Positions 1-53,926 of a stretch of 64,000 bases of DNA are shown here, piece by piece. The DNA is from an uncultured Victivallis sp. GTDB taxonomy: Bacteria > Verrucomicrobiota > Lentisphaeria > Victivallales > GWF2-50-93. A model generated the notes under the pieces. The model was not told the origin of the DNA. It searched no databases and saw nothing but the letters and a program-made list of their open reading frames with translations. The first letter of the stretch is position 1. Each line of letters opens with the position of its first letter. The DNA lies in contig CAZRKP010000005.1 in NCBI GenBank assembly GCA_964600895.1, positions 118,068-182,067 on the forward strand, read 5' to 3'. The translations under genes and the position numbers were made by a program.

Positions 1-52
1 GAATGTATTCGGGATTCTTCCTGAACATCGATTTCATCCTGTCGCTCATCAT
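1..52 (-). CDS. 5' end of an unidentified CDS that runs off the left edge
   Basis: GGAGG (complement of 61-66) lies 8 nt upstream of ATGATG (52..47). The frame stays open to position 1. An alternative ATG at 71 is in another frame. The fragment is too short to name. Confidence 0.3.
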   Translation of the reverse strand, partial: MMSDRMKSMFRKNPEYI

Positions 53-77
53 GGATATTTTCCTCCTTCATAAGATT

Positions 78-112
78 TTTTAACCACAGAACACACGAAA
101 CACACAGAATTC
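78..112. repeat. CACAGAA-word repeat element: three ~8-9 bp units preceded by TTTTAACC
   Basis: 'ttttaaccacagaacacacgaaacacacagaattc'. The same architecture occurs at 10531-10563 and, inverted, at 10806-10837. Variants occur at 39646, 40307 and 45781. Confidence 0.7.
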
Positions 113-192
113 TCAATTATGCCAAAGAATTTATCATTAATATTAATATCTTGCGTTCAATAATATATGCAGTATTATTATGAACATGAAAG

Positions 193-316
193 AATGGGTG
201 GATGGATGACAGGATTGATGGATGATTGGGTAGAATATACAAATTAGTTATTGAGATGATTATTAATAGATTTCCTGAGTTTTCAAACCCATCCATCCAA
301 TCATCCATTCATCCAG
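193..316. repeat. GGATG-word arm (193-233) and CATCC-word arm (288-316) in inverted orientation, immediately upstream of an AraC gene
   Basis: The arms are built from GGATG(A/G)NT and CATCC words. A 12-bp perfect complement links 218-229 to 297-308. The arm ends 11 nt before the ATG at 328. Confidence 0.7.
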
Positions 317-327
317 AATAGGCAATT

Positions 328-1188
328 ATGAAACCATCTGCACGGCGCAAATACTACAAGGAGTTCCATGACCTGACGGGATATGGATTCCCGGAAGTGC
401 CTCTTTTCGGTGCATACAAATTCGACAAGGCTATCGAACCACTGCAGATCCACACCCACAGCGCATTCGAGATCTGCTATCTGGTGGAGGGCAGGCAGAA
501 CTACCGTGCGTTCGGACGTGACTACCTTCTCAAAGGCGGAGATCTTTTCATAACCCGTCCTGATGAACCGCACAGCACCGGAAAACAGCCTCAGGAGAAG
601 GGAAGCCTTTTCTGGCTGCATCTAATGGCTCCGAAGAAGAACAGACCGTTCCTCGGACTTCATCCGGCTTTTGGAGCGGATCTTTATGCGGAACTGTCCA
701 CTGTCCAGGAAAAATGTTTCCTGGCATCGGCACAGATACGCGAGCTCTTTGAACGGCTTTATGCCCAACTTTCTGTTCCGGAGACTCCTTCAAGGAAGAT
801 ACTGATGGGGAATATACTTGTCTCACTGATAATGGAGATCTCAAGATGCGGACAGAATCTCCAGCGCAGTGGTGTCGGGAACCTGAACAGGATCATCCAA
901 TTCATGAACGAAAAGGCGGAATCGAGGATAAGCGTCCCTGAAATGGCGAAATTCATGGGTCTTTCGGTGTCGAGGTTCAAGGCGAGGTTCAGGCAGGAGA
1001 CCGGCATGCCTCCGGCAGAATATTTCCTGCGCCTGCGGATCGCAAAGGCCAGGGAGTTCCTTGAATCAGGAATGGGAAATGTCGGCGACGCATCGTTACG
1101 CTACAATTTCTCTTCATCACAACACTTCGCGACCACCTTCAAGCGGTTCACGGGGAAAAGCCCGTCTGAACTTATAAAAGTTGAATGA
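328..1188 (+). CDS. AraC family transcriptional regulator (N-terminal cupin-like sensor, C-terminal AraC HTH)
   Basis: The C-terminus 'MAKFMGLSVSRFKARFRQETGMPPAEYFLRLRIAKAREFL...FSSSQHFATTFKRFTGKSPSE' is a typical AraC double HTH. The N-terminus 'HTHSAFEICYLVEG...GDLFITRPDEPH' is cupin-like. Confidence 0.9.
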   Translation: MKPSARRKYYKEFHDLTGYGFPEVPLFGAYKFDKAIEPLQIHTHSAFEICYLVEGRQNYRAFGRDYLLKGGDLFITRPDEPHSTGKQPQEKGSLFWLHLMAPKKNRPFLGLHPAFGADLYAELSTVQEKCFLASAQIRELFERLYAQLSVPETPSRKILMGNILVSLIMEISRCGQNLQRSGVGNLNRIIQFMNEKAESRISVPEMAKFMGLSVSRFKARFRQETGMPPAEYFLRLRIAKAREFLESGMGNVGDASLRYNFSSSQHFATTFKRFTGKSPSELIKVE

Positions 1189-5578: not shown

Positions 5579-6340
5579 ATGGAGATAAAAAGGAAAAACC
5601 CAGATCCAAGATGCAAGATGCTAGTTGCTGGATTTTTCCATCCGGTATCCAGCATCCGGCATCCAGTATCTATCTTTACTCTTATCGAGCTGCTCGTGGT
5701 AATTGCCATCATTGCGATACTCGCAGCCCTGCTCCTGCCGGCCCTCAAACGTGCAAAGGACGTGGCTCAGTGCATAAAATGCCTGGGTAATCTAAGGCAG
5801 ATCGGTGTTGCAGAAAGCCTATATCTTGTCGATAATAGCCCTTATTATCTCCCATGGGAGGTTGACAATGTGAAATGGTTCGAAAACGAATCCTTCAGGG
5901 ACTACATGAACGCTCCGAAGAACAGTTCCGGTTATCAGTATGGAATGATATGCCCTGTATCAAAGGCGGCGATGGTCGCGACCTCCGAGATCGCCAGCAT
6001 GAACGGAAGTTATGGCAAGAACGCCGAGAACAGTAGAAAACCTTCCTACGGAGAATACCAGTCCATATACATTCCTGAGCCCAGGGTGAAAAGCCACGCC
6101 ATACATCCTCTTTACATGGATTCCATGGTTGGAGGACAGACCTCCCTCAATGACCGTTATCAGTATGTCGACGAGGACAATCCGACCGGTTACAACAGGT
6201 ATGGAGTTACGGCATATCGCCATTATAAGAACGCCAACGTGGTATATTTCGACATGCACGCTTCGACCACGCCTAAAAAGCTGGTTGTCGGAGTTGACAC
6301 CAATGATGCAAACCGAATATGGCTCTACTGGTACAAATAA
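5579..6340 (+). CDS. Prepilin-type N-terminal cleavage/methylation domain protein (DUF1559-like)
   Basis: '[29 protein letters not shown]' is the canonical type IV pilin-like N-terminus. The start is uncertain (ATG 5579 or 5618). The leader is encoded by a CATCC-word repeat at 5638-5670. Confidence 0.8.
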
Positions 6341-6369: not shown

Positions 6370-6457
6370 GAATTCAGGAGCCAGAATCCAGGAGTCAGAA
6401 TTAAATTTGAACTCAAATTAGATTTATTCTGAATCCTGACTACTGAATTCTGACTAC
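6370..6457. repeat. Imperfect inverted repeat of TCAGAAT/CAGGAG words around a small central palindrome
   Basis: 'gaattcaggagccagaatccaggagtcagaatt' (6370-6402) faces 'attctgaatcctgactactgaattctgactac' (6426-6457). The centre is 'aatttgaactcaaatt'. Confidence 0.7.
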
Positions 6458-6511
6458 TTTTGAAATTGGCTCAATGGGTGCTTGGTTAGAAATGAAAGGA
6501 AAATTCATATA

Positions 6512-10385: not shown

Positions 10386-10530
10386 GATCTCCTTTGATTG
10401 TTTTGTTTTATGGAAGCAGGTGTCAAGCTGTTTTGGAACCTGTCCTCCACCTTTTTACTCTTCTGCCTTTTATTTGGCAAAGGGGTGAAATTTAGCAGAT
10501 ATTGAAGCTTTATCAACTGCAATATGGATT

Positions 10531-10837
10531 TTTTAACCACAGAACACACAGATTACACAGAAAAATATGATGTTATTACCGTTTAACCACTTAATTGTAA
10601 GATGCTTAGGTGATATAGAAAAACCTTTAATTCTCCAAATGAAAAGATCACCGTATTTAGGTAGCAAAGGAGGAAAAGAAATCATGTAAAGCTATGCCGA
10701 GGGATATGTCACCCCTCTCCTTCTAACCGACAGGCTCTGGAACCGCAGAACCGAATCCGGCAGTGTCCTGCTCAGTCTACGAATATTTTTTTCTTTTTTT
10801 GAATCTTCTGTGTAATCTGTGTGTTCTGTGGTTAAAA
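10531..10837. repeat. 32-bp perfect inverted repeat (10531-10562 / 10806-10837) bracketing a 242-bp non-coding segment
   Basis: 'ttttaaccacagaacacacagattacacagaa' and its exact reverse complement 'ttctgtgtaatctgtgtgttctgtggttaaaa'. Confidence 0.9.
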
Positions 10838-10843
10838 TATCTC

Positions 10844-11491
10844 ATGAATTATTCCCAAAAACTCAAGAAGCTTACCGATAGGGTGCGTAAACGCCTGGAA
10901 TCGGCACCGGGCTGCCATGACTGGGAGCACACTCGCCGCGTCCTGCACAACGCCCGCATGATCGCTTCGGGTGAAAAGAAGGTCAATCTGCATGTGGTCG
11001 AATGCGCTGCGGTCCTGCATGACATTGCCCGTCCTGAAGAACTGAAGAGCAAAGGAAAGCTATGCCATGCTGTAATCGGTTCAGAACTCGCCATAAAGTT
11101 CCTCAGATCCTGCGAATTCCGCAACGAGGAATTCATCAGGAAGGTCTGCACCTGCGTAAAAACACACAGATACCGCGGGGGGCACAGCCCTTTACTTATT
11201 GAAGAAAAGATCGTGTATGACGCGGATAAGCTTGATTCCATTGGAGCGATCGGTGTCGGTCGTGCTTTCCATTTCGCCGGCAGGATCGGGGCGAAGGTCC
11301 ACAACACCGAATCCGAGGCTCTCGGATCAGATTCATACAGTTCGGAAGATTCCGCCTACCGCGAATATCTTGTGAAGCTCCGCCACATCCATGGCAAGAT
11401 GCTGACGAAAACTGGCCGTAAGATAGCAAGGCAGCGTTCCGACTTCATGCACGAGTTCTTTAAACAAATCAACAGAGAAGTCTACGGATAA
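10844..11491 (+). CDS. HD domain-containing metal-dependent phosphohydrolase
   Basis: 'HDWEHTRRVLHNARMI...AAVLHDIARPEE...YDADKLDSIGAIG' carries the H..HD..D signature. The ORF-track extension from 10763 reads through the repeat element, so ATG 10844 is preferred. Confidence 0.85.
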   Translation: MNYSQKLKKLTDRVRKRLESAPGCHDWEHTRRVLHNARMIASGEKKVNLHVVECAAVLHDIARPEELKSKGKLCHAVIGSELAIKFLRSCEFRNEEFIRKVCTCVKTHRYRGGHSPLLIEEKIVYDADKLDSIGAIGVGRAFHFAGRIGAKVHNTESEALGSDSYSSEDSAYREYLVKLRHIHGKMLTKTGRKIARQRSDFMHEFFKQINREVYG

Positions 11492-30963: not shown

Positions 30964-31170
30964 ATTCTTACCTCATAAGTATGTCGGTTTTTAAACCGAC
31001 GATTTTGTTGACGGGTTAAAACCCGTCCTACTTTTTTAATCATACATATAAAATATGCCTTTATTCTATATCATGAATAGCAAAATCACCTATTTGCATA
31101 TACTTTTCGTATGGTCTATATTTTGAACCATCAAATCGAAAATCATCAATCAAAAATTAAAAATGCTCCT

Positions 31171-38920: not shown

Positions 38921-39120
38921 ACCCAAAATGCCAGGGGCTACGTTGGAAAGGGTCGTTTTACCAGCGTAGCCCCTACATTTTAACCGTCATATTTGAACTC
39001 AGTATGAACTGCCGTCACACAGTCTTCCAACCTGTTGATGACTGCAATCCGGTACTGGGGTATCCCATGATTGCATTTGCCCAAGGTCTTATAAGCAGAA
39101 AGCATGCCAACTTAAGAAAG

Positions 39121-39155
39121 GATGAATGGATGGCTGGATGAATGGGTGATTGGCT
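39121..39155. repeat. Solitary GGATG-word arm
   Basis: 'gatgaatggatggctggatgaatgggtgattgg'. Confidence 0.6.
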
Positions 39156-39620: not shown

Positions 39621-39645
39621 TACGATTCCACTTTAAATTTCTTAA

Positions 39646-39675
39646 CTCTGTGCCTTTGTGCCTCTGTGGCTGGCT
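39646..39675. repeat. CACAGAG-word repeat (GC-richer variant)
   Basis: 'ctctgtgcctttgtgcctctgtggctgg' is the reverse complement of 'ccagccacagaggcacaaaggcacagag'. It abuts the hisB stop. Confidence 0.6.
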
Positions 39676-51690: not shown

Positions 51691-51749
51691 AGTAAACTCC
51701 CTCTTCTTATCTCTTATTATGTCTTATTATACATTGTTCAAAACATATT

Positions 51750-52559
51750 TCAAGCCCTGCGTCCACGATAAAACGTAGGAGGTTTCCCGGTACGCTCCTT
51801 GAACTGCTTGCTGAAGGCGTAGACGTTCGGATACCCGAGTATCTCCGCGATCTGGCTGATATTGCGGGTGGACGACTGCAGGAGCCCCCGCGCGGCCTCG
51901 AGCCGGCAGTTGATGACATATTCACCGGGTGTCATGCCCTTGTGCCGTCTGAAGACGCGGATGAAATGATCCACGCACATAGATGCCTTGGACGCAAGCT
52001 GCGGGATACGGAACTTATGCCCGGGATTCTCACGGATGTTCCGGCAGATCTGCCCGATCATCTCCTCATGCTCAAGATCAATTCCCTGCAGTGTCTTGAG
52101 ACGCTGGTCCTGATGATCAACCTCGTTCAATGCTGCCTGCAGCCATTCTATCGTGCGTTTCCCGTTAGGATCCGACTGGAAAGACTCTATCAGGCGGTCC
52201 ATGAGAGATTCGAAGAATGATGTCTCGGTCAGCATACGATGCCTTTGCGGGATTCGCACTTTTTCAGGCGATATCCTCCTGCCTCTGACATCAAAGTAGT
52301 CATAGCAGCACCATGAAACGACAACAGGATCTTCCTTTACGGATGTACCCATGTGCTCCTCCCAGGATCGGAGGAGGAAGCATTCTCCGCGGTTCAATTC
52401 AAACTGCCCTTCCGGTGTCTTGAGGAACCCTTTACCTTCTGCCACATACCAGAGATTATAACCGAGACGGATGTCTCCGGACTGCAGCCGGCTGTCCCAG
52501 AACCAGTTCGGTCCGCAGTAGGTCTTGTGCGCCGTCCGGATGATGATGTGGGAGTTCAT
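51750..52559 (-). CDS. AraC family transcriptional regulator
   Basis: The C-terminus 'LASKASMCVDHFIRVFRRHKGMTPGEYVINCRLEAARGLL...NVYAFSKQFKERTGKPPTFY'. ATG 52559 is preferred because the ORF-track extension to 52634 reads through the CATCC-word arm. Confidence 0.85.
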   Translation of the reverse strand: MNSHIIIRTAHKTYCGPNWFWDSRLQSGDIRLGYNLWYVAEGKGFLKTPEGQFELNRGECFLLRSWEEHMGTSVKEDPVVVSWCCYDYFDVRGRRISPEKVRIPQRHRMLTETSFFESLMDRLIESFQSDPNGKRTIEWLQAALNEVDHQDQRLKTLQGIDLEHEEMIGQICRNIRENPGHKFRIPQLASKASMCVDHFIRVFRRHKGMTPGEYVINCRLEAARGLLQSSTRNISQIAEILGYPNVYAFSKQFKERTGKPPTFYRGRRA

Positions 52560-52566
52560 AAGTACC

Positions 52567-52727
52567 TTGGATGACTGGATGAAAGGATGATTGGATGGGT
52601 GGGCAAGTTGGAATTTAGATTTGCGAAAACACAAATCCTGCTTAGGAGGACTACTACAAGCTTGACAATCATTTGATTTCCTTTTCCAAACCCATTCATC
52701 CGTTCATCCAACCATCCATTCACCCAT
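52567..52727. repeat. GGATG-word arm (52567-52607) and CATCC-word arm (52691-52727), the second copy of the structure seen at 193-316
   Basis: 'ttggatgactggatgaaaggatgattggatgggtggg' ... 'cccattcatccgttcatccaaccatccattcacccat'. The arm abuts the AraC start at 52559. Confidence 0.7.
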
Positions 52728-52858
52728 TTTTATCTAAGTCGATATTTTATATCATTTTATCGAAAAAGGAAATACTAATTCCAATATTTACCAGTAGTGT
52801 TGCAGCTGTTTACTTGATTAATCATATCGTAATCTGATAAATTATTTAGGAGTTGCCG

Positions 52859-53926
52859 ATGAAACCAATGACCACCTTCGAGCGTATGAAATGCATGTAT
52901 GAGCACCGGGATGCGGATTGCGTCCCCGTCACAGATTCACCATGGGGCGCGACAGTCCAGCGCTGGCACAGGGAAGGAATGCCGGAGAAGGTAGGCTATG
53001 ATGAATTCTTCGGTCTAGACAAGTTTGCACATATCGGAGCCGACAACAGCCCGCGTTATCCAGCAAAGGTCATCGAGGAGAACGAGGAATACGTCATCCG
53101 TACAACTGCCTGGGGACAGACCATCAAGGACTGGAAGAGCCATGGCGGTGTTCCGGAATTCCTGGACTGCAAGATCATCACCCCGGATGCCTGGAAGGAG
53201 GCCAAGGAGAGGATGACACCATCCCGTGACCGCATCGACTGGGAAAATCTCAAGAAGAATTATCCAAAATGGAGGAAGGATGGTTGCTGGATCAGGGCGG
53301 GATTCTGGTTCGGATTCGATGTCACACATTCATGGATGACCGGTACAGAGACGCTTCTTATGGCGATGGTCACCGAGCCTGAATGGGTGATGGACATGTT
53401 CAAACATCAGCTGGAAGTCGACATCGCCCTTTTTGAAATGGTATGGGATGCCGGTTACAAGTTCGACGCCATCCGCTGGCCCGATGACATGGGATACAAG
53501 TTCAAGCAGTTCTTCTCGGTTGACACATACCGTGAAATCCTGAAGCCTTATCACAAACGCGCCATTGAATGGGCTCACGCAAAAGGGATCAAGGCGGAAC
53601 TTCATTCATGCGGCGACATACGCCCACTTGTGCCGGAACTTGTAGGAATGGGTCTCGATTCATTGAATCCCCTTGAGGTCAAGGCCGGGATGGATCCAAT
53701 TGCAATCAAGGAGGAGTATGGTGGCAAGCTTGTCTTGCACGGAGGACTTAATGCCCTTCTCTACAATGAACCGGAAAAGCTTTGGACCGAAATGCACCGC
53801 GTAATACCGCTCCTGAAGAAGAACGGAGGATTCGTGATCAGCAGCGACCATTCCGTACCAGACTGCGTATCGCTGGAAATGTTCCGCGAATTCGTCAGGC
53901 TTTCACGCGAACTCGGGAAATATTGA
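52859..53926 (+). CDS. Uroporphyrinogen decarboxylase (URO-D) family protein (second copy)
   Basis: 'WPDDMGYKFKQFFS', 'LHSCGD' and 'LDSLNPLEVKAGMD'. AGGAG sits 6 nt upstream of ATG 52859. Confidence 0.75.
   Translation: MKPMTTFERMKCMYEHRDADCVPVTDSPWGATVQRWHREGMPEKVGYDEFFGLDKFAHIGADNSPRYPAKVIEENEEYVIRTTAWGQTIKDWKSHGGVPEFLDCKIITPDAWKEAKERMTPSRDRIDWENLKKNYPKWRKDGCWIRAGFWFGFDVTHSWMTGTETLLMAMVTEPEWVMDMFKHQLEVDIALFEMVWDAGYKFDAIRWPDDMGYKFKQFFSVDTYREILKPYHKRAIEWAHAKGIKAELHSCGDIRPLVPELVGMGLDSLNPLEVKAGMDPIAIKEEYGGKLVLHGGLNALLYNEPEKLWTEMHRVIPLLKKNGGFVISSDHSVPDCVSLEMFREFVRLSRELGKY

Follow-up and report, generated by a model that had tools for sequence, protein, structure and literature searches.

Cyanobacterial short tandemly repeated repetitive (STRR) sequences are intergenic arrays of tandem 7-nt units whose function is obscure, repetitive extragenic palindromic (REP) sequences affect mRNA stability, and 5′-terminal stabilizer stem-loops, such as that of the ompA leader, place a stable hairpin a few nucleotides from the mRNA 5′ end and leave the ribosome-binding site free. 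Heptamer direct repeats of TAACTGA occupy intergenic regions of Beggiatoaceae, Cyanobacteria and Bacteroidetes, where a post-transcriptional role through S1, Csp or CsrA-type binders has been advanced as a proposal only (MacGregor 2015, PMC4679880), and in REPINs a pair of inverted repeats encloses a spacer that is less conserved (Bertels and Rainey 2011, PMC3116915). Here we analyze a pair of inverted octamer arrays, with GGATG and CATCC cores, at positions 52568-52728 of a 64,000-nt stretch of DNA (the window) from an uncultured Victivallis sp. of the Lentisphaeria, immediately upstream of a minus-strand gene, AraC#2, for an AraC-family regulator. The element is a copy of a dispersed non-coding repeat, and we judge, with slightly better than even confidence, that this copy forms a 5′ leader hairpin, replaceable in evolution, whose effect on the mRNA 5′ end or on translation is generic.

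On the plus strand, GGATG cores start at 52569, 52577, 52585 and 52593, with GGGTG next at 52597, while CATCC cores start at 52697, 52705 and 52713 and are flanked on either side by CAYCC at 52689 and 52721. The period of the arms is strictly 8 nt, and the cores so located agree with the placement of the arms at 52567-52727 in a first-pass annotation of the window. The unit, TGGATGRN, is comprised of a conserved TGGATG core and two free bases, position 8 being nearly always T before the next core; as RNA, the octamer units are written (UGGAUGAA)4 and (UCAUCCAU)4. The longest inverted pair, 52568-52603 and 52691-52726, spans 36 nt at 75% complementarity with a separation of 87 nt, and the GGATG arms are nearly devoid of C and incapable of self-pairing. 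Read in the AraC sense (minus strand), a promoter-side (5′) arm at 52689-52728 (AAATGGGTGAATGGATGGTTGGATGAACGGATGAATGGGTTT; five TGGATGRN units, degenerate at both ends as GGGTG/GGGTT) is followed by an 85-nt spacer or loop at 52604-52688 and by a gene-side (3′) arm at 52568-52603 (CCCACCCATCCAATCATCCTTTCATCCAGTCATCCA) that is C-rich and G-free. The final CATCC ends at 52569, after which come 9 nt, AAGGTACTT, and the ATG (52559-52557) of AraC#2; this pre-start stretch (52557-52567, minus strand) carries a weak Shine-Dalgarno (SD)-like AAGG. AraC#2 itself (51750-52559, minus strand) encodes 269 aa with HTH_18, HTH_AraC and AraC_binding domains, and is divergent from a URO-D-family gene (52860-53926, plus strand), a pairing that is kept at all orthologous loci. 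Between the element and this partner gene lies a block at 52735-52782 (minus strand; GGAATTAGTATTTCC..TCGATA..TATAAAATATCGACTTA) that is invariant in four species and resembles a promoter/operator, its promoter role being the one we deduce below.

The pattern GGATGN3GGATGN3GGATG, with at most one mismatch, has eight occurrences across the window, where 100 dinucleotide shuffles give an expectation of 0.02, and all eight matches fall inside five arms (204-224, 294-314, 39120-39148, 52569-52597 and 52697-52725). The arrays are thus far beyond chance, as the first-pass annotation had suggested in describing them as not random simple sequence. The window belongs to a metagenome contig of 184.8 kb (ENA ERZ27257504 k141_170533), and 10 kb of further flanking sequence on the source contig contains no additional GGATG arrays. 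A second paired copy, element 1, occupies 195-315 on the plus strand, with a GGATG arm at 195-231, a spacer at 232-285 and a CATCC arm at 286-315, ahead of the ATG of another AraC-family gene, AraC#1, at 328. The spacers of the two window copies and of the orthologous element described below (L128) give local alignment scores no higher than those of shuffles (p = 0.2-0.45; about 0.2 for the window copies), and the only motif common to both window spacers is a short TTTGRAAA..AGGAAATC adjoining one arm. We considered whether element 1 is flipped relative to element 2 and set the idea aside as weak, the spacer similarity being limited to that one arm-side motif. The fifth arm, at 39120-39151 on the plus strand, has four units and no partner array within 250 nt; it is flanked on one side by the end of the phosphoenolpyruvate carboxykinase (PEPCK) gene, which has a hairpin resembling a terminator, and on the other by the end of an open reading frame (ORF) on the minus strand. 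Between the PEPCK terminator and this solitary arm we also observed a hairpin at 38934-38973 (GGGGCTACGTTGG...CCAGCGTAGCCCC) and a 41-codon minus-strand ORF at 38980-39105, which may be a gene remnant.

This architecture places the element beside, and apart from, the described classes of repeat. As in STRR and TAACTGA-type repeats, its units are tandem and 7-8 nt long, intergenic, present at multiple loci per genome and near start codons; with TAACTGA repeats it further shares sets of 2-6 copies, mostly a few nucleotides upstream of start codons, before functionally unrelated genes and patchy across phyla. In contrast, TAACTGA repeats are direct and of another unit, with one indirect repeat among 170 sets (PMC4679880), whereas the present elements are typically paired inverted arrays whose unit joins a conserved core to free linker bases. 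STRRs are near-perfect and microsatellite-like, unlike the window arms with their non-identical units, inverted pairs and position in gene leaders, so that inverted pairing and non-identical units go beyond what STRR and TAACTGA descriptions cover. REPs and REPINs are likewise dispersed, extragenic and hairpin-forming, but each REP is itself a palindrome of conserved sequence, linked to a REP-associated tyrosine transposase (RAYT) and located 3′ or between cistrons, while here tandem octamer arms that cannot self-pair, and are not palindromic, stand in a 5′ leader; no RAYT was noticed in the window, which was not given a systematic protein-family scan. With ompA-type stabilizers the element shares a stable hairpin near its putative 5′ end and a free ribosome-binding site, but those are single-copy and gene-specific, whereas this one is repeat-built, dispersed and much longer. 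Paired inverted arrays, cores with free linkers and leader position together distinguish the present elements from TAACTGA, STRR and REP/REPIN repeats, and a REP/STRR-like repeat is probably the best reading of the hairpin. A known RNA family was rejected: Rfam 15 covariance models gave no match at gathering score in the whole window, none at E<=1 in 52450-52900 and none in 12 related loci carrying the elements. When the full-text literature was searched for four specific strings, each spanning two units of the repeat, no paper on bacterial repeats was retrieved.

Orthologous loci, the closest named of which are in Lentisphaeria/Lentisphaerae metagenome-assembled genomes (MAGs), show how the element sits relative to its surroundings. 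At the AraC#2 loci of four species a common block, ...GTATTTCC..TCGAY..TATA..TATCGACTTA, lies upstream of the element. In L130/L131 (AraC 72% identical) the ATG follows directly after ...TATAATATCGACTT with no leader, the whole intergenic region being 122 nt, and the AraC N-terminus is equivalent to that of AraC#2 in the window (MKTHLVIQTAHK vs MNSHIIIRTAHK). L128/L129 (78%, Lentisphaerae GWF2_50_93) has a GGATG/CATCC element between block and ATG, as in the window; three of four cores per arm are exact and one per arm is off by one base, about half of the linker bases have changed, the spacer cannot be aligned, and the CCAAGGT before the ATG is kept. A different hairpin, with arms CCAAGTG and CACTTGG, stands at the same place in L126/L127 (81%). 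The AraC#1 loci of all species likewise share ...TTGCGT-16 nt-TATAAT-TATGTACAT, which is followed straight away by the ATG in L253 (71%), by a 48-nt leader with a 12-bp hairpin (AAGGAATCTC/GAGATTCTTT) in L252, by the same stem closing a long loop in L251 (AAGAATCTCC/GGAGATTCTT in both leaders), and by the GGATG/CATCC hairpin, in the leader place, in the window. Most of the orthologs, though not every one, thus keep a hairpin at this position, and its sequence is replaceable. Given that the ATG abuts the block in L130 and L253, we infer that the promoter must lie in the block and the element downstream of it; on this comparison the AraC transcript most likely runs through the element, which would make up nearly all of its 5′ leader. 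In L130 (2879-3003) and L253 (1395-1503) the AraC start lies 8-9 nt after a TATAAT/TATAAA-like hexamer, an arrangement that suggests leaderless mRNAs in these two lineages and leaders, or hairpins, gained or lost in their sisters.

Predicted folding of these leaders agrees with a hairpin at this position. In the AraC sense, the AraC#2 leader folds at -63.5 kcal/mol, with z-scores of -4.5 and -5.4 against shuffles, and leaves the SD-like AAGG and the AUG unpaired; the element 1 leader gives z-scores of -2.4 and -3.3, and the antisense strand also folds well (z = -2.9). Over the leader set, z-scores against shuffles were -5.4 for AraC#2 and -3.3 for AraC#1 in the window and -4.2, -3.4 and -3.6 for L128, L126 and L252, respectively, so that five of the six leaders (z -3.3 to -5.4) are far more stable than shuffled sequence; L251, at -0.8, does no better than shuffles, although a 13-bp stem clearly closes it. 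In the five, the first base of the hairpin is 3-13 nt from the putative 5′ end, and four of these hairpins end before the start codon, the exception being L128, where the outer helix pairs the ATG itself.

These observations are consistent with a mechanism in which the element, situated between the conserved promoter/operator block and the start codon, would be transcribed as nearly the whole AraC leader from a start at or close to ...ATCGACTTA, ahead of the GGATG arm. In the RNA, the arms would pair as 5-7-bp UGGAUG/CAUCCA helices with 1-2-nt internal loops between them, closing a variable loop, and the hairpin would start a few nucleotides from the 5′ end and stop short of the weak SD and the AUG, both remaining free. 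Such a hairpin would probably protect the 5′ end or otherwise tune mRNA stability or translation, as REP-type and 5′-stabilizer hairpins do, and its GGATG version belongs to a family shared with Planctomycetota and Verrucomicrobiota.

The first-pass annotation had noted that the element recurs upstream of two unrelated AraC genes. Consistent with its statement that the proteins are not close paralogs, AraC#1 and AraC#2 share 27% identity, confined to the helix-turn-helix (HTH) region; however, AraC#1 is likewise divergent from a URO-D-family gene, which makes the two loci analogous modules rather than unrelated contexts. The arrays are real at both genes and near the ATG of each, but the shared arm order is not informative, since taking the reverse complement of a GGATG...CATCC pair leaves the order of its arms unchanged and the same order on the minus strand is automatic; only closeness to the start codon carries information in the arm layout. 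Six AraC-family genes and three URO-D/AraC modules lie within 74 kb of this genome, and the GGATG element occurs at only two of the six AraC genes. The divergent URO-D/AraC pairs (L254 5568-7620; window 1-1188 and 51750-53926) suggest, as a separate matter, a regulator-enzyme module that has expanded in this Lentisphaeria genome. The suggestion of a shared cis-regulatory or translational-control element therefore survives in part: the arrays are non-random and probably leader sequence, and an effect on mRNA or translation is plausible, but a logic tied to AraC is not borne out, given the two of six genes and the orthologs that lack or replace the element, which looks like a generic leader hairpin and not an AraC-specific control site.

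Several results weigh against the interpretation as a replaceable leader hairpin. Covariation, raised earlier as possible support for RNA pairing, provides none: across 27 paired elements and 79 unit pairs, placed in the register that maximizes matches (pair counting on a fixed-register arm alignment was set aside, the register being too ambiguous), linker complementarity at unit positions 6, 7 and 8 was 65, 51 and 90%, against 63, 51 and 85% when linkers were permuted among elements (p = 0.2), and core pairs never vary and are hence uninformative. G-U-compatible mismatches number 10 in the sense and 10 in the antisense orientation, with no strand bias. The arms accordingly act like two independent samples of a single set of unit variants, and pairing follows from the conserved TGGATG and the next T, with no sign of selection for pairing itself. 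A sigma-70 consensus scan did not call the conserved blocks as promoters. The solitary arm, which is real and was listed beside the other instances in the first-pass annotation, adjoins no recognized gene's 5′ end, the sole nearby start being that of the 41-codon ORF 14 nt away. The GGATG cores kept in L128 and across phyla suggest a constraint on the sequence itself, one left unexplained by a requirement for any hairpin, and the order of partners, GGATG...CATCC in 47 cases vs the reverse in 3 among the matches listed (an array-level count, equivalent to about 24 elements vs at most 3), is unexplained by pairing alone.

The wider distribution of the repeat comes from a single-arm pattern scan of one genome per species, which found at least 118 stretches against roughly 17 expected by our estimate, spread over many phyla, with no frequency derivable from either the genome or the metagenome scans. 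Many of these single-arm matches are microsatellites of Cyanobacteria and Bacteroidota, either (GGAT)n or perfect (GGATGGGT)n, that often lie beside STRR-like heptamer arrays, and the scans are diluted by such microsatellites, by human-gut coding sequence and by probable eukaryotic microsatellites. Among the matches listed, paired arrays occur in Planctomycetota/Phycisphaerae (L025, L044, L045, L054, L056, L058, L075, L101 (two), L104 (two) and L113), in Verrucomicrobiota (L090) and in a few cyanobacteria. Spacers in related genomes range from 1 to about 250 nt, and the gene-side arm ends 9-44 nt before plausible start codons in Planctomycetota, Phycisphaerae and Verrucomicrobiota MAGs, often with an intervening SD. 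The downstream genes are unrelated, with N-termini that we read as like those of TsaD, a lipoyl-domain acyltransferase, FolD and GspF. In a metagenome scan anchored on ...GGATGRATGGGTTT, L135/L143 and L151/L220 share internal sequence while their flanks differ, and these copies point to a dispersed family. On one metagenome contig of 4493 nt (L250), GGATG/CATCC hairpins stand in every intergenic region, one of them starting at a stop codon, and (ACTCAAA)n and (CACCATT)n arrays are also present. In cyanobacterial loci (L014, L026, L123 and others), (GGATGGGT)n lies beside heptamer arrays that resemble the classical STRR sequences, of a CCCCACT-like type and of a (TGACCAA)n type that matches STRR2, and blocks of differing short repeats make up entire intergenic regions. 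Viral contigs yielded 74 stretches, nearly all solitary or tetranucleotide arrays with a single GGATG...CATCC hairpin, and a phage feature was rejected on that count.

Constraint on the core could instead mean that the sequence of the arms is what is recognized. An oligomeric or multi-site binder, for example a CsrA/Rsm-like GGA binder, would then read the UGGAUGR units as a sequence-specific RNA (or single-stranded DNA) platform, and by occupying the 5′ arm it would unfold the hairpin and free the 3′ arm, C-rich and without G, by the start codon, changing translation or creating a Rho-loading site, much as CsrA binding reportedly does in the pgaA leader. We regard this as rather unlikely, though it accounts for the near-complete retention of cores while linkers drift between the window and L128, for the same core in several phyla (among the matches listed), for the lack of covariation, as expected of motif selection rather than pairing selection, and for the GGATG-first order of the matches listed, by which synthesis of the C-rich arm never precedes that of its partner. 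The unit AAUGGAUGA also resembles the CsrA/RsmE consensus, CANGGANG, and the CsrB repeat CAGGAUG. CsrA/FliW has been reported in Planctomycetes (PMC4682653), but CsrA is not established in Lentisphaeria, and no CsrA gene was found in the 1.67 Mb of DNA examined, a result that is uninformative for the whole genome. The GGA motifs are, moreover, base-paired in the free RNA and distal to the SD, leaders with unrelated arms take the same place in orthologs, and the other array flavors of this genome would each require a binder of their own. It is improbable that UGGAUGR arrays constitute the code of an RNA-binding factor of PVC (Planctomycetes-Verrucomicrobia-Chlamydiae) bacteria, with switchable leader hairpins whose 3′ arm gives translation control or Rho entry. 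Selfish or neutral mobile DNA, akin to miniature inverted-repeat transposable elements (MITEs) or REPINs and inserted without function between promoter and start codon, would explain the arm order as terminal inverted repeats carrying reiterated transposase-binding sites. Presence and absence among orthologs, with precise empty sites, the fixed arm orientation among the matches listed, the shared interiors and differing flanks of L135/L143 and L151/L220, and solitary arms resembling decayed copies all fit such an origin, as do short direct repeats that flank both copies (ACTTA at element 2, ATGAAA at element 1) and are single-copy in the empty orthologs; these repeats, however, are unequal in length, stand off from the arms and, as 5-6-mers, could occur by chance. 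Between the window spacers there is no significant similarity (p about 0.2), the copies have no associated transposase, all seven assemblies examined are identical at the locus, and arm length, unit number and spacer (1-250 nt) vary far beyond typical MITEs. Kept cores beside a randomized spacer, between orthologs at 78% protein identity, point instead to constraint. Mobility is thus possible as the origin of the element, but the notion that it is only mobile DNA, devoid of function, we hold to be unlikely.

Readings in which the arrays act as double-stranded DNA fare worse. Ribbon-helix-helix proteins bind contiguous short repeats, the omega protein at 7-bp heptads and MetJ at 8-bp metboxes, and a repressor of this type, or AraC itself, could coat the arrays and control a promoter between or beside them; the conserved cores, their fixed 8-bp spacing, their converging orientation and the divergent regulatory region adjoining a regulator gene would suit it. 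We nevertheless find operator arrays very unlikely. In related genomes the arrays lie as close as 1-13 nt, leaving no room for a promoter between them, and a hairpin is favored over a pair of operator arrays; many genes with the elements upstream are unrelated, two AraC proteins whose HTH regions are 27% identical would not recognize a common site, and some orthologs have no arrays. AraC-family operators consist of two ~17-bp half-sites about 21 bp apart, to which arrays of 8-bp period that are absent or replaced in orthologs do not conform. A better candidate is found in the upstream block (window 52738-52763, minus strand), where a conserved ATCGAC ... ATCGAC direct repeat, whose two copies start 22 nt apart in L128 and L130 and the first of which is degenerate in the window (TCGATA), overlaps the -10-like hexamer; it is plausible, from this spacing, that the ATCGAC repeat and not the GGATG arrays is the AraC-type operator. 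Inverted repeats around ~85 bp immediately upstream of a gene also recall an invertible, phase-variable promoter whose arms would serve as recombination sites, a reading we rejected and consider extremely unlikely. The 300 nt upstream of AraC#2 are 100% identical, in one orientation, in seven metagenome assemblies from different samples, 52400-52950, spacer included, contains no promoter-like site, and no recombinase is among the neighboring genes; the arms are merely about 75-85% complementary, and the spacer is very short for site-specific inversion, with family members having spacers of 1-13 nt.

The window also contains inverted pairs of short-period arrays with other cores immediately 5′ of start codons. 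A CATCC array at 5638-5670, taken in the first-pass annotation as a further instance, turns out to be a different repeat, with a period of 7/14 nt (CATCCRG), inside a pilin-like ORF (ATG 5579). Together with 5602-5633 it forms, at about 5639-5671, a 7-nt-period inverted pair, (AGATGCA)n/(CATCCRG)n, that is 72% complementary with a 6-nt loop and spans the candidate start and signal-peptide codons of the prepilin-type (N_methyl) gene, just before FTLIELL. Other arms of 8-nt period, (ACACAGAN)x3 and (TCTGTGTN)x3, lie at 10527-10562 and 10806-10841 (36 nt, 97% complementary, 243 nt apart), the right arm ending 3 nt before the ATG at 10845; this pair may be a MITE, an inverton or a leader hairpin. 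Nearly identical to 10806-10848 is a solitary CACAGA-type arm at 78-112 (minus strand, TTCTGTGTGTTTCGTGTGTTCTGTGGTTAAAAAATCTTATG), immediately upstream, on that strand, of the start of the divergent URO-D gene and in the same intergenic region as element 1. A 14-nt-period pair, GAATTCAGGAGCCA and CTGAATCCTGACTA, occupies 6370-6402 and 6429-6458, between the stop of the pilin-like gene (6340) and the next start (6482), and further short-period arrays are found in small intergenic regions at 31129-31164, 39640-39668, 51701-51730, L254 4787-4843 and L254 5522-5567. At window 186-209 and at about 2821-2850 in L128, the GGATG arms give rise to short upstream ORFs (MKEWVDG* and MEVKNGWLD*, respectively), each starting at or near the ancestral start and having its UGA within the arm; neither is kept in other orthologs.

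If the interpretation as replaceable leader hairpins holds, these elements would represent an undescribed family of repeat-built leader hairpins in Lentisphaeria and other PVC bacteria, gained and lost between promoter and start codon, it would seem also where orthologs look leaderless. Such arrays should be annotated with caution, and not read as gene-specific operators or riboswitches; for AraC#2, the likelier control site is the conserved ATCGAC repeat further upstream. The finding of a factor that reads UGGAUG arrays would raise their importance: were the arrays the code of an RNA-binding factor, scores of unrelated genes would be joined in one post-transcriptional regulon, and ancestrally leaderless regulator mRNAs would, in two lineages, have become leader-controlled. 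The loci described here offer a tractable natural system for asking how a leader hairpin alters expression and why the GGATG core and the arm order are kept.

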